Shown: positions 5,543 to 31,920, counted from the first letter of the stretch. The stretch is 32,000 nucleotides of DNA from Thermosulfurimonas dismutans (GCF_001652585.1 NZ_LWLG01000014.1:30001-62000), one strand, 5' to 3'. Translations and numbers: made by a program. The notes: a model not told the origin generated them from the letters alone.

Positions 5543-6224
5543 GGGCTTTACCCGAAAGGATTTCTTCTTGAGCCTTAAGGTAGTTTTCAGGGGTGCCTAT
5601 ATCCCGCCAGTAGAAACCGGTAGCCACCAGGGCCTTAATCCCGTAGCCCCGGCCCAAGAGCTTCTCGTAGGCTGACACGAGCTCTCTGTCTTCCGGCAAG
5701 ACTCTTATCCATTCTGGAGAAACTACTTGGATGCCGGTATAGGCCCATCCTTCTTCGGAGTCGTCTCCAAAACCGCGGATCCATCCGTTTTCTATCCGTA
5801 CTTTGTTTAGCCCGGGATAGCGATGGAGGAACATGAGACAGGGCGGAGTCTCTCTTATAAAGGCCTCATAGACCACTCGCAGGGGGAAGTTGGTGAGGAT
5901 GTCTCCGTTTATTACTAAAGTGGGTTCCGAGAAAAATTCGGTGGCGTTTCGTAGGGCGCCGCAGGTTCCAAGGAGCTCAGGTTCCTCAAAGACCTCTATT
6001 TTTATGGCTGGAACCCTTTTCGTATAGGTTTTTACAAATTCCAGGAGTCTTTCCTTGAGATGCCAGGCATTAAGGCCAATACGGTTGAAACCCTGGGAAA
6101 CCAGTTGATCGAGGATGATGGCGAGTAGAGGCTTTCCCAGAATAGAGAAGAGCGGTTTGGGGAGATGGTCTGAGTACGGACGGAGGCGTTTGCCCCGTCC
6201 GGCACACAGTACGAAGGCCTGCAT
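5496..6224 (-). CDS. Sugar-1-phosphate nucleotidyltransferase (MurU-like NTP_transferase family)
   Basis: N-terminal LCAGRGKRLRP signature of nucleotidyltransferases, 242 aa. The start overlaps the tatA stop by 1 nt. Confidence 0.7.
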   Translation of the reverse strand: MQAFVLCAGRGKRLRPYSDHLPKPLFSILGKPLLAIILDQLVSQGFNRIGLNAWHLKERLLEFVKTYTKRVPAIKIEVFEEPELLGTCGALRNATEFFSEPTLVINGDILTNFPLRVVYEAFIRETPPCLMFLHRYPGLNKVRIENGWIRGFGDDSEEGWAYTGIQVVSPEWIRVLPEDRELVSAYEKLLGRGYGIKALVATGFYWRDIGTPENYLKAQEEILSGKAHVPHAPCKGKISLPA

Positions 6225-6427
6225 CAGGCCTGGGCCTGGGTTTTAACCCCTTCGGTTTTTTCGATTCGTTCCACTTCTTCTTTGATGTCAGCTTCTCGTA
6301 AGGCCTGTTTGAAGGAACGTATACCTTTGCCCAGACCGGCCCCGATTTCCGGAAGACGCTTGGCTCCGAAAAGAAGGAAAGCCAGGAATAGAATGATTAA
6401 CAGTTCCTGAGTCCCGAGTCCGAACAT
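6224..6427 (-). CDS. tatA: Twin-arginine translocase subunit TatA/E
   Basis: 67 aa: [40 protein letters not shown]. This is the canonical TatA TM helix, FG hinge and amphipathic helix. Confidence 0.85.
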
Positions 6428-6446
6428 AGCCGCCTCCTCCTATAAT

Positions 6447-7193
6447 TTAACCCTTGGTTTCCAATAACCATACCACAAAGATACTTAGTTCGTAAAGGAT
6501 GACCAGAGGTACGGCTAGGAAGAGCTGATTGACTACGTCGGGAGTAGGCGTGAGAATGGCCGCCACTACAAAAGCCGCTAGTACGGCGTAAGGTCTTATG
6601 CGGGAGAGGGTGCGAGCTTTGATTATCCCCAGTCTGGCTCCCACCGCAAGGGCTACTGGTATTTCGAAGCAGAGTCCGAAAACGAGTAGCATCCTGACCG
6701 CAAAGCTTACATAATCCCGAAATACGGGTTTGAAGACCAGAAATTGGCCGCCAAAGGTGGCCAAAAAACGAAAGGCTTTCGGAAAAACCAAGAAATAGGC
6801 GAAGGCCGCGCCCCCGAGAAAGGCTATACAGGAAAAAAAGATTAGAGGTCGAGCGAAGCGTTTTTCGTGGGCATAAAGCCCCGGGGCCACGAACCGCCAA
6901 GCCTGAAAGATGATGAAGGGACTGGCCAGGATGGCCCCACAAATGAGGGCGATCTTGAGATAGGTAAAAAAGGCCTCTTGGTAAGCAATGAAGATAATCT
7001 TCCCTTTCTCCGGAATGACCGGAAGAAGGGGTTTCAGAAGAAAGTTTAGCAGGGGTTCAAGCTGCCAGTAGCAAAGGGCCGAGGCCAAGATCCACGCAAT
7101 AAGGCTCTTTACGAGCCTTTCCCGAAGCTCAAGAAGATGGGCCGTTAAAGGGAGGTTCTGGTCTTCTTCGGGAAGGACGTTTTCGGTATTCAC
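6447..7193 (-). CDS. tatC: Twin-arginine translocase subunit TatC
   Basis: 248 aa and polytopic, with the TatC N-terminal pattern (PLTAHLLELRERL...). It has a GTG start whose first base overlaps the transketolase stop. Confidence 0.9.
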   Translation of the reverse strand: MNTENVLPEEDQNLPLTAHLLELRERLVKSLIAWILASALCYWQLEPLLNFLLKPLLPVIPEKGKIIFIAYQEAFFTYLKIALICGAILASPFIIFQAWRFVAPGLYAHEKRFARPLIFFSCIAFLGGAAFAYFLVFPKAFRFLATFGGQFLVFKPVFRDYVSFAVRMLLVFGLCFEIPVALAVGARLGIIKARTLSRIRPYAVLAAFVVAAILTPTPDVVNQLFLAVPLVILYELSIFVVWLLETKG

Positions 7194-14357: not shown

Positions 14358-15806
14358 ATGAGGTTCGGAAGTAATGGATGGCTGGTTTTCGGGCTGATGT
14401 TTATAGCGATGCTGGTCTTAGGGGCCGGGGCCTTCGCGGCTTCGCGGATAGACGATCCCCTGCTTAGGGTTCTGGTACGCAAGGGGATACTTACTGAGGA
14501 GGAGGCCTTGGAAATCAAGCGGGAGGCGGAGCTTGAGGCTCAAAAGGAGAACGAGGCCATTGCAAAGGCTGCGGCCGATAAAGTGAAAAAGGAAGGCCTG
14601 GTGCTGCCGAAGGGGCTAAAGGGGGTGAAGCTCGGGACTCTCACTTACATCGATTACTCGAACGGTTACGGGCCCTTCGATTCGGGAAAGGAAGAAGGCC
14701 AGAGCTACTTTGCCATCACCCGGGCCTATTTCAACTTCAAGAAGAAGATCACGCCATGGCTTTCCTTCCGCTTCACCCCGGATCTCCATGGCGGAAATGC
14801 CGATGACTACGACCTCCGTATCAAGTACGCCTATGCGGAGTTCAAACTTCCGAACTTGGGCTTTTTTACCGATCTTAAAATGGAGGTCGGACAGGGGCAC
14901 TTTCCCTGGCTCGATTTCGAAGAACACATGAACCCCTACCGCATGCAGGGGACTATGGCCCGGGAGTTTTTCGGGACTTTCAATTCCGCCGACCGAGGGA
15001 TATCGCTGGCTGGTTACCTCGGGGGCAAACTCGATAAGTCCTATGTGAACCGGCTCACGGTCCACTATCCGGTCTTTGATCACTACGCCGGGAAGTACGG
15101 TTCCTTTTGGTTCTCCTACATGAACGGTTCGGGCTATCACGGCCGGGAAACCAATGAGAACAAGGGTTTTGAAGGCCGGATCACGTTAAGACCTTTCGGT
15201 ACCCGCACCTCCGGTTCTTTTCCGCTCGCCGGTTTGCAGTTCAGCTACTTTTTCATTCGGGCAAAGGGCGGAGATAAAGCTGATTTAAACCCCTTCCGCA
15301 AACCGGAGTATCCCGACTACAACGTGGATCTTTTGATGTTGTCCTACCAGCATCCCTGGTTTGTGATCGCGTTACAGTATAGCACCTCCGAGGGCAACAG
15401 CGCTGGAAGCTGGGTGGTGGATACCGATGGGGACGGTATCGGAGACGAGGAGCTTGAGACCCGCTGTTGGTCTCTCTTTGCGGATGTGACTTTGCCTATT
15501 TTCAACGAAAGACTTCACCTCTTTGGCCGCTATGACCGTTTCGATCCCAACGACGGAGACGATTTTTATGATGGCACGAGGTGGGTTTCGGACTCAAACG
15601 ACGAGGCCGAACACTACATGGTGGGTCTGGCCTACTATCTCACCGGGAAGAACATCCTCATGCTGAACTTCGAGTGGCTGAACTACGCACGCAATTTCCG
15701 CAACTCGAGCGACCAGTTCACCAAATGGGGGAAATATGACCCCTCTGGAAACGACCGGCTGGACGATGGCTTCCGGGTGCAGACCGTGTTGCAGATAAGT
15801 TTTTAA
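14358..15806 (+). CDS. Outer-membrane beta-barrel porin (phosphate-selective porin O/P-like), signal peptide plus N-terminal coiled coil
   Basis: Signal peptide (LVFGLMFIAMLVLGAGAFAAS), alternating beta-strand pattern, aromatic-rich, and a C-terminal ...VQTVLQISF beta-signal ending in Phe. An AAGGAGG RBS is present. Confidence 0.6.
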   Translation: MRFGSNGWLVFGLMFIAMLVLGAGAFAASRIDDPLLRVLVRKGILTEEEALEIKREAELEAQKENEAIAKAAADKVKKEGLVLPKGLKGVKLGTLTYIDYSNGYGPFDSGKEEGQSYFAITRAYFNFKKKITPWLSFRFTPDLHGGNADDYDLRIKYAYAEFKLPNLGFFTDLKMEVGQGHFPWLDFEEHMNPYRMQGTMAREFFGTFNSADRGISLAGYLGGKLDKSYVNRLTVHYPVFDHYAGKYGSFWFSYMNGSGYHGRETNENKGFEGRITLRPFGTRTSGSFPLAGLQFSYFFIRAKGGDKADLNPFRKPEYPDYNVDLLMLSYQHPWFVIALQYSTSEGNSAGSWVVDTDGDGIGDEELETRCWSLFADVTLPIFNERLHLFGRYDRFDPNDGDDFYDGTRWVSDSNDEAEHYMVGLAYYLTGKNILMLNFEWLNYARNFRNSSDQFTKWGKYDPSGNDRLDDGFRVQTVLQISF

Positions 15807-15918: not shown

Positions 15919-17289
15919 TTAAGAAGATTTTGGAGAAATAGGTAAGATTATTTCCACTCGTGTCCCTTTGCCTTCCTCGGAATAGATTTCTATTTCTCCT
16001 CCCAGGCTCTTTACCAGATTATAGGTGATGGCCAAGCCCATACCGGTGCCATCGGGTTTGGTGGTGAAGAAGGGGTCAAAGACCCGGTTAAGGATTTCTT
16101 TGGGAATCCCGGGGCCGGTGTCTTTTATCGTTATGACTACGTGATCGTCGTCTTTAAGAGCGGTTTTTACGCGAAGTTCCCCTCCACCCTCCATGGCCTG
16201 AATGGCATTTAGGATGACGTTTAAGAAGATTTGTTTCAAGGCCTCTGGAGAACTCTGGATGGCAGGAAGATCCGCAAACTCGGTATGGATTTCTATTTTG
16301 TTTTTTCTGGCCTGAAAGCCGATCAGTTTCAAAGTCTCTTCGAGTATAGAGTTGACTTGGGTTTCAACGAATTTGAGGTCCTGACGTTGGCTTCTAGCAA
16401 ACTCTAGGAAGTTTTTAACGAGACGATCTATGCGTTTAATTTCCTTTTCTATGATTTCGAAAGTCTCGGGCCGAGCTTTTCCCATTTTTAAAAGCTCAAT
16501 GGAAAGGGAGATAGAAGTTAGGGGATTCTTGATTTCATGGGCCACTCCGGCCGCAAACTGGCCAAGGGCATAAAGCCTTTCCGAACGGGCCATCCGTTCA
16601 TGAGTGCGTTTTATTTCTTCTACTAATTCCTTTAGCTGAAGCGACATGCGGTTGAATGATTCCACTAGTTCTGCAATTTCGCCCACGGCTTTGACTTTTA
16701 TGGTTTTTCCAAAATGTCCTTTTCCGATTTCCCGGGCCGCTTGATTAAGGACGAGGATGGGTTTAGCTACTCGACGGATCATCCAAAGGGCCGCCAAAAT
16801 GCCGGTCAATACGATTATTCCTATTAGTAAAAGAAGTTTACTTTCGGTGGCCTGTAGCCTTGAAAGGAGAAGATCCTTCCGAAGGCCCATTTTCAAGGTT
16901 CCAAGCCTGCCCAGTTCTTCCGTTTTAATCTCTATAGAGATCTCAAAAACATCCTTCTCTTGAATCTCCTCTATTTTGGGATAGTGAAAAAGAGGTTTCC
17001 CGTCTTTGTCTTCTAAGATAATCCAGGATATGTGAGGGTCATTTTTGATTACATTTTTGAAAATGGTATAAATGGTATAAAAATCTTCGTACAGAAGAGG
17101 TTCCACTATTTCATGGGCTAAAAGTCTGGCTTGAGAGATATGCTCCTCTAAAAAGGCCTTGGTAAAGAACTTTTTCTCTTCTTTAATGATCAAGACAGAA
17201 ATCAAAGCGGTGGTTATGACTATGACCAAAGTTATGGCCATTGAAAATTGAAAAACGATACTTTTTGATATCCTTTTTAGAGTGAACAT
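15919..17289 (-). CDS. Sensor histidine kinase (2 TM + periplasmic/extracytoplasmic domain, HAMP, HisKA, HATPase_c)
   Basis: 456 aa with HAMP ([17 protein letters not shown]...LVESFNRM), an H-box ([15 protein letters not shown]), an N-box ([11 protein letters not shown]) and G-boxes ([14 protein letters not shown]). Confidence 0.9.
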
Positions 17290-18122
17290 TCCAATATGTA
17301 ATTTGCGTAGGAATATAGTTCGGGTCTCGGTGGAACGAAGTGGTCTATTCTCATCTTTTTAAGGATTTTTTTGCCTTCTAGATCTTTGTCCATCTTGAGG
17401 AGTATTTTGAGGACCTTTATTCGGAAATCTTTGTCGCTTTGCGGGGACGATACCAGGGGTGGAATGCCGAAGAGAGGAGATTTTTCGATGACTTTGGTCT
17501 TGGAAATAAAATGGATCTTCCTCTCCAGAAGGTTTTCATAAACTAAGCTATCCACAGAAGCCCCTTCTACTACCCCCTCGGCGACAAGCTCAATGGATTT
17601 GTCGTGTGAATAAGAGAAGAAGGTGCGTTCGAAGAATTTTTCAGGTGTGGTCCCCAATCGTTTGAGCCTATAAAGTAAGTAGAGTCTTCCTGTAAGGGAA
17701 AGAGGATCGGTGAAAACGAAACTTTTTCCTTGGAGGTCTTCAAGACGTCGGTAAGGTGCCTCGCTATTCACAATAATATAGGCTTGATAATAGGGCCTAC
17801 CGTACATCACGGGAATGGCCAAAAGTGTTAATCCGAAATCTTTGTGTCCCGCTAAATAGGCCCCGGTGCACACGTGTCCGAAATCGGCTTCCCCGTTTGC
17901 AAGCATGCGGTTTACTTCGATATAGGTGTGCCTTTGTTTGAGGATTACCCTTTTTCCTAATTTAGCGGAAAGATACCTTACGAATTCCTGATAGGTAGCA
18001 ATAGTAATATTAGGGGAAACCATAGGTGAAACTACGAAGATATAGACCTCTTTACCTTCCCCTTTCGGGGCTTGAAAAAAGATAGTAAAAAGTAGAAATA
18101 GAACATACCTTTTCATGTCCAA
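17277..18122 (-). CDS. PhnD-like periplasmic substrate-binding protein (phosphonate-bd family)
   Basis: 281 aa with a signal peptide and the typical PhnD-like pattern (Y..F..YL...LG..V.L......Y.E....L..GE.DF). It overlaps the downstream histidine kinase by 13 nt. Confidence 0.7.
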   Translation of the reverse strand: MDMKRYVLFLLFTIFFQAPKGEGKEVYIFVVSPMVSPNITIATYQEFVRYLSAKLGKRVILKQRHTYIEVNRMLANGEADFGHVCTGAYLAGHKDFGLTLLAIPVMYGRPYYQAYIIVNSEAPYRRLEDLQGKSFVFTDPLSLTGRLYLLYRLKRLGTTPEKFFERTFFSYSHDKSIELVAEGVVEGASVDSLVYENLLERKIHFISKTKVIEKSPLFGIPPLVSSPQSDKDFRIKVLKILLKMDKDLEGKKILKKMRIDHFVPPRPELYSYANYILECSL

Positions 18123-18149: not shown

Positions 18150-18755
18150 TTAAGGTGTGCTCGTTCGTACCAAAGGCCACGTTTCGGGAGGATCTCCGCG
18201 GCCTACGGAAAGGCCAAGGGCATGGGCTTCTTTTAAGGCCGAGGGGTGCTTTTTGATATCGTTCCTTTTTTCTATACCCCTGAAAAATAGCCCTCCCTGA
18301 TATTCGGCATTAATGGCGTCAAAGAAGTACCGAACGACCCGTTGAACCCCTTCAAAGAGCTTCTTACCCTTGGTGGCTCCGAGAGAAAGGAAGATGCCGT
18401 GCCTTTTCTTCTGGGCCGTCTCTTTCAGCATATATTTTCTGACCCAGCAGGCCTGAGAGCGCTCCACCAGGGCCTGGGTGCGGGAAGATATGTTGTAAAA
18501 GAAGATGGGTGAGGCCAATACGATCACATCGGCCTCAAAGAGTTTGGGATAAAGAGGCGAGAAATCGTCCTCGAGCACGCACTCCCCGGTCTCGTCACAA
18601 CCGCCGCACTCGATGCAAGGCGAGAATTCGAGCCGGTAGAGATCGTACTTTTCTACCTCCGCTCCGGCTTCCCGAGCGCCTTCCAAAAAGGCCTTGAGCA
18701 GGGTGTCCGTGTTGCCTCCTATCCTAGGACTTCCTTGAAAGGCAAGGATTTTCAC
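18150..18755 (-). CDS. Iron-sulfur flavoprotein (Isf-type, NADPH-dependent FMN reductase fold)
   Basis: 201 aa with an MKILAFQGSPRIGGNT flavodoxin-like N-terminus and the compact CIECGGCDETGEC (CX2CX2CX5C) motif characteristic of Isf proteins. Confidence 0.7.
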   Translation of the reverse strand: MKILAFQGSPRIGGNTDTLLKAFLEGAREAGAEVEKYDLYRLEFSPCIECGGCDETGECVLEDDFSPLYPKLFEADVIVLASPIFFYNISSRTQALVERSQACWVRKYMLKETAQKKRHGIFLSLGATKGKKLFEGVQRVVRYFFDAINAEYQGGLFFRGIEKRNDIKKHPSALKEAHALGLSVGRGDPPETWPLVRTSTP

Positions 18756-18757
18756 CG

Positions 18758-20587
18758 TTAAACCTTCCCCGATGGGGGATTGATATATTTGTCCGCGTAT
18801 TCCCGGACATGGTGGCCTTCGAGCACATGAAAGGTCCGGATTCGGTGAAGGAGGATGGGCGAGAAGGAACCTAGAGGTAGATAGATGACCTTTTTGCCCT
18901 GTCTGGCGGCGAAGTTTCTGGCCAGAGCCGTAGGAGGCCTTCGGGCCACATAGACGACGTACCTCTCAAGGGAGTAGTCAATGGCGGCTACCAGCAGTCT
19001 TTCGGCCTTGGTGCGTGCGAAGTCGAAATAGGGATCCTCCCAGATGTCGTAGACTCGCATGGGAGGGTAGGTGAGCATGAACCCCCCGTAGGTGCAACGA
19101 GATATTCCTGGACCAACCACTACCTCTCCGGGTGGGGTAGCGTAGAAGGCCATGTCCGATTCCTGGTCGTGTTCCCCGTGCCAGGTAAGTTTCCAGGGAT
19201 AGCGTTCCCGGCCCTCTCCCCCGGGAGAATCTTCGTCGAAGATGACCACCACCGACCCGGCTTTGCCCGTGGCCACCGGGGCGTCCACCACGTAGATCCG
19301 GCCTTCGTGCCATCGTCTGATGGTTTCTCTTATGTCCGGCCCGTCCTTCATGGAGACCGTGAAGGGCTCAACCCGCCTGAGCTCCTCCGATATCACCCTC
19401 AGGGCCCGACGCATGACGTCCCGCCCGAAGTTTTCGATCACGATATCCTCCGGGGGGAAAGAACAGATGTATCCGCCTCGCCAGGCCTCTTTCCATTCCC
19501 CGTAACGTCTTTCGGTGGGCCGCTTTTTGATCGGGATTAGGCGCTGACGGTGCAAAGGCTTCATCCTCCGGAAGAAGCGGATCTTTTTGTGGGGCTTCAT
19601 CAGGTCTTCGAGCCTCAAGTCCAGGGGGACCAGGTCAGGGACATCCTGCTGGTAGGGGTAACGGGTTCCGATCTCCCAGAGGTGCCAGGCAAAATCGTCT
19701 CCACCCACGCCACGGGCCGCGACCAGCAACTGATAGAAGTCTGGAGTGAGTCGAGCCGAAAGCAGGGCGTAATTGCGGGCAAACTGGCGGAGGACGGAGA
19801 GGTTCCGTGGGGGGATCTTTTCTTGGAACTCTCTCTCGTAGGCTTTACAGGCCTTTGCAAGGAGGTCCTCATGAAGGCGCAAACGATCGAGGGGAAGATG
19901 GCCTTCCCTCCGGGCCTCCTCGTAGGCTCCCTGAAGGAAGCCGACCTCTGAGAGTACCTCCCGAGAGCCTTCAAAGGAAAGGTGAAAGAGCTTTATGCCT
20001 TCACGGTGCGTACGTGCAAAGGGGGTCGGCAGACTCGGCCGTTTCAAAGTTTCGACCACCGGTTTGATGTGTACCAGGCCACCCACAAAGGCCACCCTCG
20101 AGAATCTCCCGGAGAGCTTCTTCAGACCGTAGGCCATGGACAGCTCACGGCTTTCATCTTGGGGAAGCCTTTGGAATTCGTGCTTTAGGGCTTCTTCTAC
20201 ATAGCGCTCGTAGCCCAGACGGTACACCAGATAGGTGTCTGGGAAGGGGTCTTTCCGACCCGTATAACCCTCAAGATCTAGATCCACGAAAAAGACCGGA
20301 ATCCCCCTCTCTATAGCGAATCTTACGGCTTCGATCAGGGGTTCAACCGGTTCCACAATGAGATAGACCTCTGTGCCGTCCTGTTCTTGATAGGTAATTA
20401 CCGATAAATAGGGGAGGCGCTTTACTCCTCGTAGAATGGCTTCCGAAAGAGTCGGAGGATACTCCACGGCCACCGCTTCGGGGGCTATTTCAGTGAGTTT
20501 TTGATGTACGGCTTGGGCGAATTCCAGGTTCCCGTGAAGGACCGGTAGAAAATAGAATTCGGTACCCTGATCGATTACGCGTAGCAT
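18758..20587 (-). CDS. 609-aa protein of unknown function with an N-terminal TraB/PrgY/GumN (Tiki-superfamily)-like region; possibly DUF5682-related
   Basis: A long, clean ORF tightly coupled to its neighbours. The N-terminus shows FLPVLHGNLEFAQAV..IAPEAVAVEYP and ESRELSMAY...VAFVGGLVHI, resembling the TraB-family GxxH...E / RE..M / GxxH layout. I saw no DxSxS MIDAS motif. The C-terminal ~350 aa has no motif I recognise. The functional call is tentative. Confidence 0.5.
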   Translation of the reverse strand: MLRVIDQGTEFYFLPVLHGNLEFAQAVHQKLTEIAPEAVAVEYPPTLSEAILRGVKRLPYLSVITYQEQDGTEVYLIVEPVEPLIEAVRFAIERGIPVFFVDLDLEGYTGRKDPFPDTYLVYRLGYERYVEEALKHEFQRLPQDESRELSMAYGLKKLSGRFSRVAFVGGLVHIKPVVETLKRPSLPTPFARTHREGIKLFHLSFEGSREVLSEVGFLQGAYEEARREGHLPLDRLRLHEDLLAKACKAYEREFQEKIPPRNLSVLRQFARNYALLSARLTPDFYQLLVAARGVGGDDFAWHLWEIGTRYPYQQDVPDLVPLDLRLEDLMKPHKKIRFFRRMKPLHRQRLIPIKKRPTERRYGEWKEAWRGGYICSFPPEDIVIENFGRDVMRRALRVISEELRRVEPFTVSMKDGPDIRETIRRWHEGRIYVVDAPVATGKAGSVVVIFDEDSPGGEGRERYPWKLTWHGEHDQESDMAFYATPPGEVVVGPGISRCTYGGFMLTYPPMRVYDIWEDPYFDFARTKAERLLVAAIDYSLERYVVYVARRPPTALARNFAARQGKKVIYLPLGSFSPILLHRIRTFHVLEGHHVREYADKYINPPSGKV

Positions 20588-20595
20588 CCGTTCGT

Positions 20596-21462
20596 TCAGT
20601 TCACCGGCCGAAGATGAGGCCTTTCGCTGGCTCCATTTTCTGGGAAGTAGATCAGGGCTTCGGTTCCGAGTACCTGCAGGATGGACTCCTTCAGGACCTC
20701 CGCTAGCGACCTCCCGGAATCAAAGCTTTTGAGGCGTTTTAAGGCGTAGCGGCCGATGTTCACCCCGTCCCTTACGCTGTATGGTTCTCCATGGCGATGT
20801 GCGGCCTGGAGAAAGGCCACCAGGTAATTCAGGATCTCTTCCTCGGCAAAGGGCAGGTTGGCCCTTAAGATCTCCTTTTCCTCTTCAGCCTCGGGAAAGT
20901 CCACAAAGATCTGCGGCTGGAGCCGGGAATGGATGTATTCTGGAAGATCGAAGGTGGAGGCGTCCTCGTTCATGGTCACACAGAGGCGAAAGTCTGGATG
21001 GGCCTTGATCTTGATCCCGGCCACGATGGATTCCACATATCGCCGGGAGTCAAGAAGCGGGGCCAGCGAGGCCCAGCTCTTCTCGCTCATACGGTTGGCC
21101 TCGTCGATGATGGCCACCCCCCCACGGATCATGGCCGTAACAATGGGGCTGGCCATGTACCTGATGCGGCCCTCCTCGGAGATTACCGGGGTTACGATGA
21201 GGTCTTCCGGACGGGTGTCCACCGTGGCCTGGAAGATATAGACCTCGCGAGCAAGCCTTTTGGCCGCAGCATAGGCCAGAGTGGTCTTGCCTACCCCGGG
21301 TTTACCCACCAACCGAGGATTCAAAGGCAGATCCCTTTCGTCCACTACCATCCAGGCCGCAAGGATCTGCCGGAGGACATCCTCCTGCCCCACGCAGACT
21401 AGGTTGAGTTCGTCCGGATGGGCCAGGTGCAGGGTTACCCCTTCGATAGTGACTGTTTCCAT
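20596..21462 (-). CDS. MoxR/CbbQ/NorQ-type AAA+ ATPase (AAA_5)
   Basis: Walker A (VGKPGVGKTT), Walker B (VAIIDEANRM), sensor-1 (CVTMNED) and the PEYIHSRL region. The start is placed at METVTIEG (ATG at 21462, GGAG RBS) because the track's longer ORF would leave zero intergenic space to the divergent gene at 21577. Confidence 0.8.
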   Translation of the reverse strand: METVTIEGVTLHLAHPDELNLVCVGQEDVLRQILAAWMVVDERDLPLNPRLVGKPGVGKTTLAYAAAKRLAREVYIFQATVDTRPEDLIVTPVISEEGRIRYMASPIVTAMIRGGVAIIDEANRMSEKSWASLAPLLDSRRYVESIVAGIKIKAHPDFRLCVTMNEDASTFDLPEYIHSRLQPQIFVDFPEAEEEKEILRANLPFAEEEILNYLVAFLQAAHRHGEPYSVRDGVNIGRYALKRLKSFDSGRSLAEVLKESILQVLGTEALIYFPENGASERPHLRPVN

Positions 21463-21487: not shown

Positions 21488-21515
21488 TTAAGAATTTTAA
21501 CATCCAGGGTATAAT
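21488..21515 (+). promoter_or_regulatory. Candidate sigma70 promoter for the DUF362 gene
   Basis: TTAAGA (21488-21493), a 16-nt spacer, then a perfect TATAAT (21510-21515), about 60 nt upstream of the ATG at 21577. Confidence 0.35.
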
Positions 21516-21576
21516 TTGTACATTCTTTACCAGGAATCCAGCTTGAACTCTTCTTTGCAAAATATCTGCTGGCCAA

Positions 21577-22491
21577 ATGGGTTTTAAAGAACGGATAGAG
21601 TTTTTTGTTTGCGAAAACTATCGCCCGGATCGATTGAAAAGGGCTATAGCCTTTCTTTTGGAAAAATTAAGTTTTCAGGTTTCCTCGGGGACTCGGGTCT
21701 TAGTTAAACCCAATCTGGTGTCTGCCCGTAATGCGGCTCTTTCCTGTACACATCCTGAGATAGTGCGAGCAGTCTGTGAATGGCTAATTGAGAAAAGAGC
21801 CGAGGTTACAGTTGGAGATTCACCGGCCTTTGGGACCACTCGTGGTGTAGCCCGAGCCGCGGGCCTTGTGAGGGCCCTTTCCGATCTACCGGTCAAAATC
21901 GTTAGTTTTAGCCCTTCGCGTCCCATAAAGCTTGCTTGTGGGGTCACGGTGAAACTTGCCCGGGAGGCCCTTTGTGCGGATCTAATCGTGAACCTCCCCC
22001 GTTTCAAGGCCCACGACCAATTGCTCCTAACGCTTGCGGTCAAGAATCTTTTTGGGTGTGTGGTGGGACTGCAAAAACCTTTGTTCCACGCCCGCTTCGG
22101 TGAAAGGGGAGATCTTTTTTATCGCGTGATCCTTGAGGTAAGTGAGCTTTTACCGGTGGGCCTGAACCTGATGGATGCCATCGTGGCCATGGAGGGCCGG
22201 GGGCCTACCACTGGCCGCCCCAAGAATCTTGGCCTTCTCTGGGCCTCAAGAAGCGCCGTGGCTTTGGATACCGCCATTTATCTGGCCCTCGATCTTTCTC
22301 CGGAGGAGGTTCCCCTCTGGCAAACGGCTCAGAAGATGCGGCTATATGGTGCCAGACCCGAGGAGGTAGCTTTCCCGTCCGATTTTCCGGATCTTTCGGA
22401 TTTTAGATTGCCTGAGAAGCCTTCCCCGGTGAGCTTTCACCCCCTGCGCCTGATCCGTGGGATCTTAAAACGGTTACTAATGAAAATCTGA
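21577..22491 (+). CDS. DUF362 domain protein
   Basis: 304 aa: VLVKPNLV, TVGDSPAFG, LPRFKAHDQLLLTLAVKNLFGCV and DAIVAMEGRGP match the DUF362 pattern as I recall it. Confidence 0.7.
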   Translation: MGFKERIEFFVCENYRPDRLKRAIAFLLEKLSFQVSSGTRVLVKPNLVSARNAALSCTHPEIVRAVCEWLIEKRAEVTVGDSPAFGTTRGVARAAGLVRALSDLPVKIVSFSPSRPIKLACGVTVKLAREALCADLIVNLPRFKAHDQLLLTLAVKNLFGCVVGLQKPLFHARFGERGDLFYRVILEVSELLPVGLNLMDAIVAMEGRGPTTGRPKNLGLLWASRSAVALDTAIYLALDLSPEEVPLWQTAQKMRLYGARPEEVAFPSDFPDLSDFRLPEKPSPVSFHPLRLIRGILKRLLMKI

Positions 22492-22506
22492 GACCTTGTT
22501 CTTCAA

Positions 22507-22530
22507 AAATGTATTTGTAATACTACATTT
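22507..22530. promoter_or_regulatory. 7-bp inverted repeat upstream of the RHH antitoxin gene (candidate autoregulatory operator)
   Basis: AAATGTA (22507-22513), 10-nt spacer, TACATTT (22524-22530), 23 nt upstream of the ATG at 22553. Confidence 0.35.
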
Positions 22531-22552
22531 AGAAACCAACCGAAGGAGAATT

Positions 22553-22810
22553 ATGGGAACGGTGGTGAAATCTATTCGGGTTGAAGAGGAATTGTGGGAG
22601 GCGATTAAAGATTTGAGTCGAGAAGAAAAGAAGCCTATCAGCCGGATTGTGGCGGAAGCCATTCAGAAATACTTGGAAGAAAGGCGGATTAAAGGAAAGA
22701 TTAAGGCCATCCGGGAACTGCCGAGGCTCTCTTTAGGGGGAGAGCCCTTCAGGAGAGAGGATTTATATGAAGATCGGTATTGGTACCAATGTGTTTTACT
22801 ATGCCATTGA
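22553..22810 (+). CDS. Ribbon-helix-helix (CopG/VapB-like) antitoxin
   Basis: MGTVVKSIRVEEELWEAIKDLSREEKKPISRIVAEAIQKYLEE shows a beta-strand followed by two helices, typical of RHH DNA binders. A GAAGGAG RBS lies at 22542-22548. The reading frame runs on over the start of the toxin remnant. Confidence 0.65.
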   Translation: MGTVVKSIRVEEELWEAIKDLSREEKKPISRIVAEAIQKYLEERRIKGKIKAIRELPRLSLGGEPFRREDLYEDRYWYQCVLLCH

Positions 22811-23519: not shown

Positions 23520-23839
23520 AAAAGCTGGTGATGAGCTTGGTGGGGGTGGGCTTGCTTCTTGGAGGTGTAGGGCTAGCTTCCGGGGCCGACCTTAAGAAGG
23601 GCGAGAAGCTTTTTCGGCGGTATTGCAGTTTCTGTCATCCTGATGGTGGCAATACTATTCGTTCAGAAAGAAATCTCAAACGCGATACCCTGATAAAGAA
23701 CGGAATTACCTCCCCTGAAGGCATCATTGAGAAGATGCGTCGTCCAGGGCGGGGAATGCCTGCCTTTTCTGAAAAGCGGATCTCTCCAGAAGATGCCGAA
23801 AGTATAGCCCACTACATCTGGGAGGCCTTTAAAGACTAA
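23516..23839 (+). CDS. Monoheme class I c-type cytochrome (c553/c6-like), secreted
   Basis: Signal peptide (LVGVGLLLGGVGLASGA), a CSFCH heme-binding motif and a distal GRGMPAF Met ligand region. 107 aa. The start overlaps the engB stop (ATGA). Confidence 0.8.
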   Translation: MKKLVMSLVGVGLLLGGVGLASGADLKKGEKLFRRYCSFCHPDGGNTIRSERNLKRDTLIKNGITSPEGIIEKMRRPGRGMPAFSEKRISPEDAESIAHYIWEAFKD

Positions 23840-24968
23840 AGAGCGATAGGTTTCGGGCCGGTCGTTTCCCTCCGATGGTGATGAAAGGCAGGGCCCGTTC
23901 AACTCTTATTCCTAAGCGAGCTAGCCCCTTCGTAGTGAGGACACAGTCTTTTCTCAAAGAAAGGAGTTTCTTGGCTGAACGAGGCCCTATCCCTGGAACC
24001 CTGATGAGCTCCTCATAGGAGGCCTTCTTTAACTCTACCGGAAAGAATTCCGGGTGTCTTTCGGCCCAGGAAAGCTTGGGGTCCTTGGCAAGATCTAAGT
24101 TTTTCCCGGGGCCGAGAAGTTCCTCGTAACTAAAACCGTAGAGCCGCATGAGGAAATCGGCCTCATAAAGACGCCGTTCTCTAAGGAGCGGTGGGGGAGT
24201 TTCTTTCGGTGGGAGCCGATGGTCATCGTTTACCGGGAGATAGGCCGAAAAGTACATGCGTTTGAGAAGTCCCTGGCGATAGAGGTTTTGGGCCGCACGC
24301 AGGATATCGTAGTCTGTCTCTTGGGTGGCTCCCACGATGACCTGGGTGGTAAGAGAGGTCGGAAGTTCCTCCTCCAGTTTAAACCTCCGGGCTTGGGCTA
24401 AGGCCCCTACGAGAATTCGTTTTTCCTTTCCTGGGGCGAGGAGGGCCAGGCTCTTTCTCCTTACAAACTCCAGGTTGGCGCTTACCCGGTTGGCGAGCCT
24501 TACCGCCTGACGCACAAGCTCCGGATCAGAGCCCGGAAGGAGCTTGAGGTGAAGGTAACCCCGAAAGCTGTAAACTTGTCGAAGGAGTCTTGCGACCTCT
24601 AGCATGCGCTCCATGGTGTAATCCGCGGAGCGGGCCACCGCCGAGCTCAGGAATATTCCCCGGATTACACCCTTTCGGTAAAGTTCCATGGCCAGCTCGG
24701 CCAATTCCCGGGGTTCAAAGCTTGCCCGTGGAACGTCCTTTGAGGCCCGATTCACGCAATAGACACAATCATAACGGCACCGATTGGTAAAAAGGACTTT
24801 GAGGAGCGGCAGACACCGGCCGTCGGCGGTCTGGGCCAGATAGATACCGGGGATGCGCCTTCGGCCCTCAAAGGAGGCCGGCGCTTCCCGCTTAAAGCCC
24901 GTCCCGGTGCAGGAGTGGTCGTAACTGGCCGCCGCCCCCAGGATCTCGAGCTTTTCCCAGACAGTCAT
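23829..24968 (-). CDS. Radical SAM protein of the putative DNA modification/repair family with C-terminal helix-hairpin-helix
   Basis: CRYDCVYCVNR (CX3CX2C) and C-terminal YEELIRVPGIGPRSAKKL (HhH). The overall layout matches the family annotated as putative DNA modification/repair radical SAM protein. The start at 24968 is preferred (ATGA overlap with the upstream stop); the alternative is the ATG at 24989. Confidence 0.8.
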   Translation of the reverse strand: MTVWEKLEILGAAASYDHSCTGTGFKREAPASFEGRRRIPGIYLAQTADGRCLPLLKVLFTNRCRYDCVYCVNRASKDVPRASFEPRELAELAMELYRKGVIRGIFLSSAVARSADYTMERMLEVARLLRQVYSFRGYLHLKLLPGSDPELVRQAVRLANRVSANLEFVRRKSLALLAPGKEKRILVGALAQARRFKLEEELPTSLTTQVIVGATQETDYDILRAAQNLYRQGLLKRMYFSAYLPVNDDHRLPPKETPPPLLRERRLYEADFLMRLYGFSYEELLGPGKNLDLAKDPKLSWAERHPEFFPVELKKASYEELIRVPGIGPRSAKKLLSLRKDCVLTTKGLARLGIRVERALPFITIGGKRPARNLSLFSL

Positions 24969-26542
24969 TTTCCAAAAAGTCTTAGACATTCAAAAAGCCT
25001 GGTCTTCACCTTTTCAGCCAGGTTTTTCGGGGGTTCGGTGGTCTCAAGGCGAAGCAGGTTTTCAGGTGGAATCTCTCCCGGGGCCTCAAAGCGTTTCTTC
25101 TGGGCTAAATAGATCTCCCAGCGTCCGTCCGAGGGTTCCTCTGCTTCTTGCGCCCGTCTCTCAAGCCTTTCCCGGATAACCTCAGCTGGAGCCTCGCAAA
25201 GGATGAAGAGGATCGGCACTTCCAGTTTTCGGGCCAGCTGCAACAGGGTTTCTCGGTGGGCGCGCTTGCGGTAGGTGGCATCAAGCACCACATCCCGGCC
25301 GGAGGTGAGGGACGCCTCCGCCCGCCGCAGGAGTTCCTCATAGGTGCGCTCGGTCATCTCCGGGGCGTAAAGTCCCTTTTCAAAGGGTTCGTAGCGGTGT
25401 TCTGAGGGTAAAAGGCCCGCAAGCTCCTTTCTTACTACATCCGAGTTGTAGTATTCCGCAAGGAGTTCGGCGTAAAGTGTACGGCCTAAAACACTCTTTC
25501 CCGTGCCCGAAAGCCCGAAGACCACGATAAGAAAAGGTTTTCCCCCGGCATAGCGGTAGGCCAAATCAAAGTACCTGCGGGCGGCGGTAAGAGCGGCCTC
25601 GCGCTCTTCCTGCGGCACCCCCTCCGAAGCCCAGGTAAAACAGCCGATCTTTCCTCGCACGTAAGCTCGATAGCACTTATAAAAGTCGAGGATGTCGTAA
25701 AGCCTGCGGTCATTGGAGAGTTCCACATAGCGCTCAATAAAGAAGCGGGAAAAATCCTCCAGGCCATGAAAATCGAGATCCATGGAAAGAAAAGCCAGAT
25801 CCTGGGCTACATCCCCGCAGCGGAAACGCTCATTAAACTCTATACAGTCAAAGACATAGACCTCGCGCAGATCGTCGTAACAGACATTGGCGGAGTAGAG
25901 GTCTCCGTGCCCGTCCCGGATAAAGCCCCCTTCTATGCGGGCGGAAAAGAGGGCCTGATTTTCCTCCATAAAACGCCTGGACCAGGAAACAATATACTCA
26001 TAGCGCAGGCGACTTAAGGCCTTTCCCACGAAATCCCGGGTCTGCTCAAAATTTTCCTCCACATTGAAGCGCACGGTCTCAAGGCTTCCGTAGCGGTTAA
26101 CTTCGGGGCCGGTCTCGGCCTCCTGATAAAAAGGTACAAGTTTTTGGACGAGAAGCTCCAAATGATTGCGGGTAAGGGCACCTTCTCTTATGAGGCGGCT
26201 CATCATGCCTTCTTCTGGAAGACGTCTCATTTTAACTGCCCATTCCACCACCTCGCCCTCACCCTCAAACCGAAAACCATCCGTGGTCTTCACCACCGGA
26301 ACCACCCCGAGGTAAATGTCAGGGCAGAGCCTGCGGTTTAGAACCACTTCCCTTTCGCAGAAGTGTTTGCGTTTTTCCAGGGTGGTGAAGTCCAGGAAGC
26401 CGAAGTCCACCGGTTTTTTTATCTTATAGACCAGTTCGCCTGCCAGAAAGACCCAGGAAATGTGCGTTTGTCTAAGCTCGATCCGTTCAGGCCGATGGGG
26501 ATAAGCCTCGGGACCCAAAAGATCTTCTATTAACCTTTCCAT
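24965..26542 (-). CDS. Fusion protein: N-terminal APH/protein-kinase-like fold plus C-terminal P-loop (AAA_33-type) kinase
   Basis: The N-terminal half has a kinase catalytic loop (IRDGHGDLYSANV) and FDCIEF. The C-terminal half has a Walker A (VFGLSGTGKSVLG) and an LDATY Walker-B-like motif. 525 aa. Confidence 0.75.
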   Translation of the reverse strand: MERLIEDLLGPEAYPHRPERIELRQTHISWVFLAGELVYKIKKPVDFGFLDFTTLEKRKHFCEREVVLNRRLCPDIYLGVVPVVKTTDGFRFEGEGEVVEWAVKMRRLPEEGMMSRLIREGALTRNHLELLVQKLVPFYQEAETGPEVNRYGSLETVRFNVEENFEQTRDFVGKALSRLRYEYIVSWSRRFMEENQALFSARIEGGFIRDGHGDLYSANVCYDDLREVYVFDCIEFNERFRCGDVAQDLAFLSMDLDFHGLEDFSRFFIERYVELSNDRRLYDILDFYKCYRAYVRGKIGCFTWASEGVPQEEREAALTAARRYFDLAYRYAGGKPFLIVVFGLSGTGKSVLGRTLYAELLAEYYNSDVVRKELAGLLPSEHRYEPFEKGLYAPEMTERTYEELLRRAEASLTSGRDVVLDATYRKRAHRETLLQLARKLEVPILFILCEAPAEVIRERLERRAQEAEEPSDGRWEIYLAQKKRFEAPGEIPPENLLRLETTEPPKNLAEKVKTRLFECLRLFGK

Positions 26543-29844: not shown

Positions 29845-31920
29845 TTGGATAAAAATAGGCTTTTGCTAGGGCTTAAATATTTTTTGCTCCTTTTGGTATT
29901 GGTAATAGGTCTTTACTTTCGGTTTGAGGACTTAGGGGGTTGGAAAGCTAGATATGCCTCTCTCTTTTATCTAGACGATCGGCCGCTTTTTACCAGTTAC
30001 GATGCCTTCTGGTTTGCGCGGCTAGCCAAGGATTATCAGGAAGGGCTCTATGATTTCGGCGATCGCGATCCCTTTAAATTCGTGCCGGACAACTATCTTA
30101 CCGAAAACTTCACCTATCCCCTTCTACCCATGGAAAGCTTTCTGGCTGCTGGAACCGCCAGACTTTTCGGGATCTCCATAGAGAAGTTTGCCCTCTATTT
30201 TACCCCTGTGGCCGCCGTCCTGTTTGCGATTCCGCTTTTTGTTTACTTAAACCGCCTGGGCTATCCCCTGGCCGGTCTTATGGGAGGGCTGGTGGGGGTC
30301 ACCAGTCTTATCTACCTCATCCGGACCTCCATTGTGCGGTTTGATACCGACAGCCTCAATCTCTTTTTCCCTTTTACGATAGCCTTTTTCCTGTGGAATT
30401 ACTTCCGGAGTTCAAGGCCTCTGTTCCAGGCCCTAGGAGCCTCTGTGGCTTCTTTGTTGTTTTACTGGTGGTATAGCAAAGCCCATCTGATATTGGTTCT
30501 TTATGCGGCCTTTTTGGTGCGTCTTTTTTGGGAGCGTGGGAAAAAGCTGACCTCTCTTGATTGGAAGGCCTTGGGTATTCTTATCCTTCCCCAGATCTGG
30601 TATCTGTGGCAGGCCCCTTGGGGGCTTTACAAGCAGATTATGGGGTATGTGATAAATATAACTTCTTCCGCTAGCCAACGTGGAATTTTTTCGGGTTTTC
30701 CCAATGTTTTGCAATCTATCTCCGAATTACAGAGCGCTCCCGGACTAAAGGGAGTGGCCTATTTTTGCCTCAACCACCAGTTTCTGCTGATCCTCGGACT
30801 TCTAGGAGCTTTCTTACTTTTCATAAAACGCTTCAGAGACCTACTCTTCCTTCTTCCTTATTTTGCTATAGGTCTTCTTACCTTCCGATCCGGGAATCGG
30901 TTTGCCATGTATCTGGCTCCTTTTATCGGAATGGGGTTGGGCTTTCTGCTGGAAGAGGTCCTGGCCCAGGGGAAGGGGTTAAGGCCTGATGGCTCCTTTG
31001 GGAATCGGCTCCTGAGGGAGGCGGTAGTCCTTGGTTTAGGGGTGCTTCTGGGAGCCGTGGTGGTTCTTTCTCAAAGCAAGAGCCTGGCCTACACAGCGGT
31101 TCCCAAGGTATTGGCTCCCCTGGCCCGGGACATGGAGGCCCTTCAAGAGAAGACCCCCCGAGAGGCTTGGATCTATACCTGGTGGGACCTGGGATACGCC
31201 TTTCAGTATCTTTCCAGACGGCCGACTTTTATAGACGGCGGTTCGCAGGGGACTCCTAAAACCTATTTTGTGGCCCTTTCTTTTACTACTCCTTCACAGG
31301 AAAAGGCCTACCATGTAACAGCCTTTCTCGCCGAAAAGGGGCTAAAGGGTCTGCGAGAGATCCTTGAGGAGTCCGGAAAGGATGCCGAGGAGGTGGTGGC
31401 CGACATCGTCTCCGGTAAATACGTCCAAAGGCTATCCCATCCGGTTTACTGGGTCTTCACTCCGGATCTACCGGCCAAGTTCGGCTGGATCCACTACTTC
31501 GGGAGCTGGGACTTTAAGAAAAAGAAGGGAACCTTCGGGTTTGTCAGGCCGGTTGAGGGCTGTCGACCGGCAAAGAAAAATCTTCTGGCCTGTCGAGGAA
31601 TGCTTCTGGATCTGGAAAAGGGCCTGGTAATCCAGGGCCTAAAGGCGTTGAAACTAAAGGAGATCGTGATCAAAAAAGGTGATGTCCTTTCAAGGAAAAG
31701 TTTGGCTTCGAAAGGCTTGATTTTAGAGATCGCTCAGGAAAAGGGCCGGACTTATTTTTATCTTGTGGATGAAAAGAGTTTTGTAAGCAACTTTAACCAA
31801 ATGTATATCTTGAGGCGTTACGATCCTCGCTATTTTCAATTGGTGTGGGACGACTTTCCTACCATGGTGGTCTATCGGGTCCGAGAAGATGATAATATAC
31901 TTGCCGGTCCGGATAGATAA
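29845..31920 (+). CDS. PglB/STT3-family oligosaccharyltransferase (N-linked protein glycosylation)
   Basis: 691 aa with a polytopic N-terminal ~430 aa and a soluble C-terminal domain. Catalytic-site layout: D53 (TSYDAFWFAR, nt 30001-30003), D167-T-D169 (RFDTDSL, nt 30343-30351), SISE294 (nt 30715-30726) and WWDLG at aa 446-450 (nt 31180-31194), followed by FIDGGSQGTPKTYFVALSF. This parallels Campylobacter PglB D56, D154/D156, E319 and WWDYG as I recall them. It has a TTG start 1 nt after the galE stop. Confidence 0.8.
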   Translation: MDKNRLLLGLKYFLLLLVLVIGLYFRFEDLGGWKARYASLFYLDDRPLFTSYDAFWFARLAKDYQEGLYDFGDRDPFKFVPDNYLTENFTYPLLPMESFLAAGTARLFGISIEKFALYFTPVAAVLFAIPLFVYLNRLGYPLAGLMGGLVGVTSLIYLIRTSIVRFDTDSLNLFFPFTIAFFLWNYFRSSRPLFQALGASVASLLFYWWYSKAHLILVLYAAFLVRLFWERGKKLTSLDWKALGILILPQIWYLWQAPWGLYKQIMGYVINITSSASQRGIFSGFPNVLQSISELQSAPGLKGVAYFCLNHQFLLILGLLGAFLLFIKRFRDLLFLLPYFAIGLLTFRSGNRFAMYLAPFIGMGLGFLLEEVLAQGKGLRPDGSFGNRLLREAVVLGLGVLLGAVVVLSQSKSLAYTAVPKVLAPLARDMEALQEKTPREAWIYTWWDLGYAFQYLSRRPTFIDGGSQGTPKTYFVALSFTTPSQEKAYHVTAFLAEKGLKGLREILEESGKDAEEVVADIVSGKYVQRLSHPVYWVFTPDLPAKFGWIHYFGSWDFKKKKGTFGFVRPVEGCRPAKKNLLACRGMLLDLEKGLVIQGLKALKLKEIVIKKGDVLSRKSLASKGLILEIAQEKGRTYFYLVDEKSFVSNFNQMYILRRYDPRYFQLVWDDFPTMVVYRVREDDNILAGPDR

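Follow-up and report, generated by a model that had tools for sequence, protein, structure and literature searches.

We analyzed a 32,000-nucleotide (nt) stretch of DNA from Thermosulfurimonas dismutans (GCF_001652585.1, NZ_LWLG01000014.1:30001-62000; in the following, the window), in which a gene for a MoxR-class AAA+ ATPase is directly followed by a gene for a protein of 609 amino acids (aa), in the following called the partner, and by a gene for an iron-sulfur flavoprotein of the Isf type. A prediction made earlier from the DNA sequence alone (the original prediction) had proposed that ATPase and partner form a two-component module with a TraB/Tiki-like protein and no VWA-domain protein, possibly related to DUF5682 gene clusters and with the flavoprotein attached as a redox partner. 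The genes and the promoter candidate at this locus are listed here, with positions counted from the first letter of the window.

20596-21462, minus strand: MoxR-class AAA+ ATPase, 288 aa (open reading frame [ORF] call, Pfam AAA_5)
18758-20587, minus strand: partner ORF, 609 aa (ORF call)
18150-18755, minus strand: Isf-type iron-sulfur flavoprotein (Pfam FMN_red, E = 1.6e-18, and cysteine motif)
21494-21522, minus strand: sigma-70-like promoter candidate upstream of the ATPase ATG (TGTACA-17-TAAAAT with TG, consensus scan)

The ORF coordinates, the two intergenic gaps and the motifs quoted in the original prediction were all reproduced exactly. Read directly, the junction between ATPase and partner is TGA-acgaacgg-ATG (8-nt gap) and the junction between partner and Isf is TAA-cg-GTG (2-nt gap); Isf starts at this GTG, which is preceded by a Shine-Dalgarno-like run, GGGGAAGG. 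A TTG at 21576 is an alternative start that would extend the ATPase ORF. The ATG at 21462 was favored, because homologues are about 285 aa long and because the promoter-like site lies inside the TTG extension. The promoter candidate itself is weak evidence, as the number of sites returned by the consensus scan was not above shuffled expectation. Both ATPase and partner matched database proteins of T. dismutans exactly, i.e. WP_068671321.1 (annotated as MoxR family ATPase) and WP_068671320.1 (annotated as hypothetical protein). These exact matches and the thousands of homologous clusters found for the partner indicate that both ORFs are genuine genes and not chance ORFs.

Conservation and distribution of the gene pair

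Related loci were collected from genomes (32 loci from at least 7 phyla), from metagenomes (80 loci, gathered with a narrower family alignment), and through several single look-ups. Among the 95 loci with enough upstream DNA, 93 carried an orthologous ATPase gene in the same orientation directly upstream of the partner gene; in most cases, the genes overlap or lie a few nt apart. The exceptions were locus L007, where the ATPase gene is present about 700 nt away, and locus L032, with a partial match. Carriers of the pair comprise Thermodesulfobacteriota, a Geobacter relative, Chlamydiota, Acidobacteriota, Burkholderiales, UBP9, and Vulcanimicrobiota. The adjacency, for which the original prediction had called for a gene-neighborhood survey, is thus kept across phyla. 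ATPase and partner also co-diverged, with a distance-matrix correlation of r = 0.93, and we therefore conclude that the two genes were co-inherited. The conserved unit consists of two genes, not three, and it is chromosomal and housekeeping-like.

Homologues of the partner formed more than 3,138 clusters at 90% identity and 1,140 representatives at 50% identity (E <= 0.001). The family hence has thousands of members, found in sediment, hydrothermal, and endosymbiont bacteria, and nearly all of them are about 600 aa long. The insertions that distinguish longer members (700-800 aa) gave no match to a Pfam domain. Members carrying a source name were all labeled hypothetical, except for one UniProt entry named 'TraB determinant protein'.

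Architecture of the ATPase and its partner

The ATPase matched Pfam AAA_5 with 67.7 bits (cut-off 22, E = 1.4e-18). It consists of the core AAA+ module alone, without extra domains, and carries the Walker A motif GKPGVGKT at aa 53 and the Walker B motif IIDEANR at aa 118. Its top sequence matches in the PDB were the AAA domains of Midasin (1.5e-22), CbbQ (3.9e-9), and NorQ (3e-8), as well as the MoxR-like protein 2r44. In a set of 24 orthologues from several phyla (mean identity 67%), the Walker A/B motifs were invariant, and the Walker A/B, sensor, and Arg regions were at least 90% conserved. The AAA_5 match and the CbbQ, NorQ, and Midasin relatives bear out the earlier assignment to the MoxR/AAA_5 class. 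Judged by its sequence, the protein is a minimal MoxR-clade AAA+ ATPase, and the conserved motifs suggest that it is active.

For the partner, a full-length AlphaFold2 (AF2) model was derived from a 58-sequence alignment, with a predicted local distance difference test score (pLDDT) of 93.5. Together with sequence conservation and profile comparison, this model divides the protein as follows.

20033-20587, minus strand: partner aa 1-185, TraB/Tiki-like alpha/beta domain (weak DUF5682 and PF01963 matches, hhalign, Foldseek)
19625-20032, minus strand: partner aa 186-321, one strand and a helical middle domain (AF2, hhalign)
19472-19624, minus strand: partner aa 322-372, disordered linker rich in lysine and arginine (K/R; AF2 pLDDT 55-73)
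18761-19471, minus strand: partner aa 373-609, family-specific C-terminal alpha/beta domain, or C domain (conservation, AF2)

The partner is similar in size to NorD and CbbO. This similarity and the general co-occurrence of MoxR ATPases with a VWA partner (PMC3893208) would fit a conventional MoxR-VWA pair with a VWA/MIDAS domain concealed in the 609-aa protein. Against such an arrangement, no D.S.S or D.[ST].[ST] motif was found in the window partner (D.S.S occurred anywhere in the sequence in 3 of 58 family members), and, with a cut-off as loose as E 10, the VWA models of Pfam matched neither the 58 full-length sequences nor the 40 C-domain sequences examined. The Foldseek matches to the PDB obtained with the two confident models, full-length and C domain, did not include a VWA or integrin I-domain structure, and the C domain is modeled as beta-rich with a beta-alpha unit, not with the alternating topology of VWA. 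A VWA domain was also absent from the annotated genes of the window and from the annotated neighbors of related loci. With motif, Pfam, and Foldseek all without support for it, a hidden VWA domain is hardly credible and was rejected; the original prediction, which had named such a domain in advance as speaking against it, stands on this point. There are precedents for unusual partners of MoxR ATPases.

Several lines of evidence indicate a TraB/Tiki-like fold at the N-terminus of the partner, as had been proposed from its motifs (LPVLHGN at aa 14, PEAVAVEYP at aa 36, ESRELSMAY at aa 145, and VAFVGGLVHI at aa 165). When the full-length model was compared with BFVD by Foldseek, it matched 'TraB family protein [Marseillevirus LCMAC201]' with E = 4.0e-6 and probability 1.00. 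This target is itself a predicted structure; the match covered 230 columns with a target-length-normalized template modeling score (TM-score) of 0.46 and presumably falls on the N-terminal domain of the partner model. Weak PF01963 matches of relatives lie at the cognate motif. At the motif level, the window partner also contains the pentad of two His, two Glu, and one Arg (H18, E42, R147, E148, and H173) in the order and with the spacing of TraB-like proteins; two His and two Glu with a basic residue constitute the catalytic signature of the Tiki family (PMC6254334). H and E, like R and H, are spaced 24-27 residues apart, in agreement with YbaP and YehM, and the residues equivalent to the pentad are invariant in YehM. 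Of 58 diverse members, 41 retain the full pentad, among them all closer genome loci save for one substitution (GEREH in L010).

Matches to solved structures were weak throughout. The best Tiki-fold match among them was RRSP (6a7h_C, E = 0.64), and Foldseek searches of the PDB with the full-length and C-domain models returned nothing below E 0.03. Neither the single protein nor a profile gave a meaningful match to sequences in the PDB. Weak Foldseek matches to KaiC, Argonaute/SPARTA, and Rossmann fragments were left uninterpreted, having a probability below 0.1 or covering about 50 columns.

The relation to DUF5682 (PF18934), which the original prediction had considered possible, proved real within limits. 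The window partner scored 17.3 bits against this model, under the gathering cut-off of 26 bits, relatives reached up to 37.7 bits, and 8 of the 58 diverse members matched at E < 0.01. All family matches were confined to positions 1-82 and 154-216 of the 727 positions of the hidden Markov model (HMM). Aligned by hhalign with a 24-sequence YehM profile, the family gave a probability of 94.9% (E = 4.2e-8) over 271 columns, spanning residues 13-294 only. The YehM profile represents true DUF5682 proteins, E. coli YehM scoring 331 bits on the model. The first ~290 residues of the partner are hence, by profile alignment, homologous to the N-terminal module of YehM/DUF5682. They include the first ~100 residues of the middle domain, which AF2 models with helices at 205-308 (pLDDT > 90).

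In view of this homology, the partner could be a divergent member of a DUF5682/YehLMPQ-type system, i.e. of an already catalogued family, and the sub-threshold DUF5682 scores, the hhalign result, and the fact that both families adjoin an AAA_5 ATPase all fit. On the other side, the homology ends at about aa 290, the ~320 residues that follow are unrelated, and the window partner remains under the gathering cut-off. The ATPase is not YehL-like either, as BLASTP aligns the P-loop only, and genes for VWA (YehP) or SWIM (YehQ) proteins were not found beside the pair in the surveyed loci. We consider this explanation rather improbable, and full membership in DUF5682 was rejected, since the homology is limited to the N-terminal ~290 residues.

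The linker contains 17 K/R in 51 residues (33%); the family mean is 24%, compared with 13% for the whole protein. Its composition is conserved, its sequence is not. It could be where the AAA+ pore takes hold of the protein, or it could serve to tether nucleic acid.

The C domain is, to judge from conservation, the best-conserved and indispensable part of the partner. Its identity to the window partner was 52-76%, compared with 26-63% in the other two regions. Nearly all invariant polar residues of the protein are located here, the near-invariant positions being E380, D381, E385, D415, G416, E421, E472, E476, H587, and R595, and this set is essentially invariant even in members whose N-terminal pentad is degraded. 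Modeled alone, the C domain reached a pLDDT of 93.7 and a predicted TM-score (pTM) of 0.88, with a beta-rich part followed by a three-strand beta-alpha unit. No match was found in Pfam (40 sequences, even at E 10) or among PDB sequences, and a Foldseek search of the PDB with the C-domain model gave nothing below E 0.25. The emphasis that the original prediction had placed on the TraB-like domain is therefore not upheld: the C-terminal half is the better conserved one, and about 30% of diverse members have lost the catalytic set of the N-terminal domain.

Gene neighborhoods and candidate functions

Starting at aa 47, the flavoprotein carries the cluster motif of Isf, CIECGGCDETGEC (CX2CX2CX5C). 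Isf adjoins the pair in only 1 of about 118 loci (L001, the closest relative). Genes found downstream of the pair in other loci encode rubrerythrin (in the position of Isf in L010 and L036), an RlmL-like methyltransferase, prephenate dehydrogenase, a LigD 3'-phosphoesterase, a transglutaminase-like protein, an FGGY kinase, or an IF-2B-family protein, depending on the lineage; an insertion sequence (IS) element or a convergent gene also occurs. Upstream genes were equally varied. In all-vs-all clustering of neighbors, first for the 32 genome loci and later for about 118 loci, no family was present in more than 10 loci, and any conserved third gene was rejected on this ground.

A three-component system with Isf as obligate redox partner, or else an anti-phage or conflict system, was also considered. 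The 2-nt gap and the Shine-Dalgarno-like run suggest co-translation of Isf in T. dismutans, where it is possibly co-transcribed with the pair; rubrerythrin takes the same position in two other loci; and AAA+ two-gene modules are common in defense islands. The redox partner of the original prediction nevertheless failed as a conserved component, and was rejected as such, given its adjacency in a single locus and downstream genes that vary by lineage. For a role in defense, PADLOC gave no match to the partner and only weak, generic AAA matches to the ATPase. No match to the pair was obtained in a search of phage sequences, and single occurrences were found among 72,556 plasmids (the Neochlamydia megaplasmid pS13) and among 2.9 million viral contigs. 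The pair is surrounded by housekeeping genes, and its sequences show strong conservation instead of diversification. A defense or mobile element was rejected accordingly; comparative genomics largely refutes this explanation, which appears very improbable.

Some lineage-specific arrangements at the pair were recorded as well. A Transglut_core protein is encoded directly downstream in L014 (5574-7106, Acidobacteriota) and in L038 (8184-9881, Syntrophobacterales); published work connects this family with MoxR-vWA operons. In Chlamydiota-type loci, a PP-loop gene (TtcA family, tRNA 2-thiocytidine) lies upstream of the ATPase gene on the same strand (L013, 4425-5147; L124, 4127-4873; L125, 3393-4145), abutting it in L013 and L125 and about 240 nt off in L124. 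This synteny hints at a tRNA or Fe-S connection in that lineage. In the window, a PhnD-like periplasmic binding protein gene (17277-18122, minus strand) follows 27 nt after Isf and overlaps a gene for a HAMP/HisKA histidine kinase (15919-17289, minus strand), and the sole good terminator-like hairpin in that run (15892-15878) follows the kinase gene. The five genes from ATPase through partner, Isf, and PhnD-like protein to kinase may form one transcript in T. dismutans. Divergent from the ATPase gene, a DUF362 protein is encoded in the region 21577-22810 (plus strand), with a small ribbon-helix-helix protein next to it. The DUF362 protein matched NCBIfam Npun_F2552 below threshold (202 bits, cut-off 500); in T. 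indicus, its slot is held directly by an EngB-like GTPase gene.

The reading we favor, and to which we would give about an even chance of being correct, is that of a MoxR remodeler with a dedicated non-VWA adaptor or effector acting on a cytoplasmic client. It would consist of the compact MoxR ATPase and the ~600-aa cytoplasmic partner, which would replace the usual VWA adaptor. In NorQD, a single NorD molecule binds to the side of the hexamer and plugs its pore with a finger of the VWA domain, and the client is remodeled at the expense of ATP (PMC9976466). Extrapolating from NorQ/NorD and CbbQ/CbbO, we infer a physical complex, in which the ATPase would most likely assemble into a hexameric ring and dock onto a single partner, and in which the energy of ATP hydrolysis would serve to remodel either a cytoplasmic client or the partner. 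Contact with the ring would be made by the C domain, by the basic linker, or by both, and the linker is a candidate for the engaged segment. Docking, catalysis, or metal binding would likely be centered on the cluster of acidic, His, and Arg residues in the C domain. The Tiki-like module, finally, would provide client binding, with hydrolysis possible where the pentad is intact. As the pentad of the window partner is intact, ATP-coupled cleavage of a client, as a peptidase or esterase, is plausible in the T. dismutans lineage. For the family as a whole, such cleavage cannot be the common function. Systems of MoxR ATPase and peptidase have been proposed before (PMC3495828), and the transglutaminase-like protein encoded after the pair in two phyla weakly fits this theme.

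A number of observations weigh against this reading. (i) Locus L126 contains an orphan partner gene (4702-6588) without an ATPase gene within 4.7 kb upstream; its pentad is degraded to SSFAW, and it is the sole clear uncoupled case. (ii) The pentad is eroded in 17 of the 58 diverse members (e.g. PDILW, SSFAW, and HPSFK). In L125 and L127, the pentad is degraded, and the partner gene still directly follows that of an ATPase with intact Walker motifs; Tiki-like catalysis is therefore not essential to the function of the family. (iii) The PF01963 matches, found in 5 relatives, remained sub-threshold (12.9-16.3 bits compared with a cut-off of 26.8, HMM positions 215-256), and the window partner itself did not match PF01963. 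(iv) No signal was obtained by hhalign against E. coli YbaP, neither with the single sequence nor with a 13-sequence enterobacterial profile, which was too shallow (effective sequence number, Neff, ~2) to decide the matter. (v) The C domain has no detectable relatives, which makes its role a matter of guesswork. (vi) The gene neighborhoods are heterogeneous and point to no client.

In a more specific version, the pair would be an ATP-dependent processing machine, in which the MoxR ring threads or remodels a client via the basic linker and the new-fold C domain and hands it to the Tiki-type hydrolase. We regard such a machine as unlikely. If it existed, it would represent a further independent combination of AAA+ ATPase and peptidase beside Clp, Lon, FtsH, HslUV, the proteasome, and YifB, and the C domain would have a novel fold and stand in for the VWA/MIDAS adaptor in function.

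Metal or cofactor insertion is another candidate function. Like NorQ/NorD (FeB into cNOR), CoxD/E, and the chelatases, the pair could be a chaperone in which the ATPase opens a client metalloenzyme and the acidic/His cluster of the C domain delivers the metal in place of MIDAS; the Tiki-like domain would then be a binding scaffold and not a hydrolase. The invariant residues E380, D381, E385, D415, E421, E472, E476, and H587 resemble a set of metal ligands, and a Tiki pentad that is dispensable in some lineages is consistent with a scaffold. The nearest characterized prokaryotic relatives of the ATPase, CbbQ and NorQ, are maturation or activation factors. Moreover, iron proteins are encoded directly downstream or upstream of the pair in several lineages, i.e. 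Isf (window and L001), rubrerythrin (L010 and L036), and TtcA-family proteins (L013, L124, and L125), TtcA-family PP-loop proteins being Fe-S enzymes. Yet no metalloenzyme is consistently nearby, most neighbors being unrelated housekeeping genes, and the C domain resembles no known metal-binding fold in Pfam or by Foldseek. We consider a metal chaperone possible, albeit doubtful.

The ATPase and the linker also raise the question of an RNA target. The pair could be an RNA- or ribosome-directed, Midasin-like remodeler of prokaryotes that removes or processes a factor bound to a ribonucleoprotein, with the basic linker binding RNA. Midasin is by far the best solved match of the ATPase (1.5e-22 vs 3.9e-9 for CbbQ), and the disordered K/R-rich linker is conserved. 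Genes related to translation or RNA occur in the neighborhoods of several lineages, encoding the EngB GTPase (window and T. indicus), an RlmL/THUMP methyltransferase (L034), TtcA-family proteins (L013, L124, and L125), Tex (L014), RF3 (L022-L029), and the LigD 3'-phosphoesterase (L011 and L030). However, these neighbors are mostly divergent or merely nearby, lineage-specific, and common genes. The AAA_5 model was built on dynein and midasin sequences, and the strong score may reflect the clade of the ATPase only. An RNA-binding domain was not detected. An RNA-directed function thus seems quite improbable to us.

The remainder of the window is ordinary chromosomal DNA. Its genes include those for a transketolase-like protein, a thiamine-pyrophosphate enzyme, an enzyme of the isocitrate/isopropylmalate dehydrogenase family, ThiC, and an EngB-like GTPase. 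At 14358-15806 (plus strand), a 482-aa protein without Pfam match is encoded, whose N-terminus resembles a signal peptide and whose last residues are ...QISF; this protein is probably an uncharacterized outer-membrane beta-barrel. A radical-SAM protein with a helix-hairpin-helix (23829-24989, minus strand) overlaps by 25 nt with a 525-aa protein (24965-26542, minus strand) that has a C-terminal AAA_33 kinase domain, and the two are possibly a coupled pair. A homologue of STT3/PglB-like oligosaccharyltransferases (691 aa) is encoded at 29845-31920 (plus strand) in this Thermodesulfobacteriota genome.

Comparison with known systems

Among characterized systems, NorQ/NorD and CbbQ/CbbO (CGN subfamily, with VWA adaptors) resemble the pair in their organization, in which the gene for a compact AAA_5 ATPase of ~270-290 aa is followed by that for one large dedicated partner. 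The geometry of the NorQD complex, a ring with one adaptor (PMC9976466), is likely the same in the pair by analogy. In contrast to NorD and CbbO, the partner has no VWA/MIDAS domain and instead combines a Tiki-like module with the C domain, and the pair has no linked gene for a client enzyme (nor, cbb, or cox). The MoxR-vWA-YebA operons likewise join a MoxR ATPase and a peptidase-like domain, here a transglutaminase-like peptidase, and have been proposed to be ATP-dependent degradation systems (Zhang and Aravind 2012, PMC3495828). They differ from the pair, which lacks a vWA protein and a membrane anchor and whose peptidase-like fold is Tiki, not papain-like.

With the TraB/PrgY/GumN - Tiki superfamily (Tiki, RRSP, and erythromycin esterases), the partner shares the fold, according to the match between predicted structures, as well as the order and spacing of the two His, two Glu, and Arg. 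Unlike members of this superfamily, it scores under the Pfam thresholds, is fused to a family-specific C-terminal region, and is coupled to an AAA+ ATPase. The loss of the pentad in about 30% of diverse partners resembles the inactive Tiki-fold protein PMT.

Searches of the literature returned no paper mentioning DUF5682, no paper, among those listed, linking MoxR with TraB or Tiki proteins, and no description of a Tiki-type module in YehM. TraB, Tiki, and Yeh are also unmentioned in a survey of nucleoside triphosphate (NTP)-dependent conflict systems that covers vWA-MoxR (eLife 2020). The pair is a widespread, uncharacterized MoxR-adaptor-like module that lacks the VWA protein typical of most such pairs (PMC3893208) and for which we found no description. 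The action of MoxR ATPases is commonly explained by way of their VWA/MIDAS adaptors. As the present family is widespread and strictly paired, with an adaptor of another kind, it lends itself to examining what part of MoxR function requires VWA. The C domain, confidently modeled, conserved, and without detectable relatives in sequence or PDB fold, is a good target for structural and functional work.

A parallel in gene order is the E. coli cluster YehL-YehM-YehP-YehQ, in which the gene for an AAA_5 ATPase is also directly followed by one encoding the homologous ~290-residue module. In E. coli K-12, the gene for the DUF4132 protein YehI lies upstream of yehL-yehM-yehP-yehQ (yehI-yehQ, L033, 5280-15945). 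The C-terminal halves of YehM and the partner are unrelated, their ATPases are not close relatives, and the Yeh cluster encodes VWA (YehP) and SWIM (YehQ) proteins, neither of which is found beside the pair. YehM shares the invariant H-E-R-E-H set of the partner and, judged by this set, also carries a Tiki-type module. The common N-terminal module ties the pair to the uncharacterized YehLMPQ system and suggests that the Tiki-like module is a recurrent companion of MoxR ATPases.

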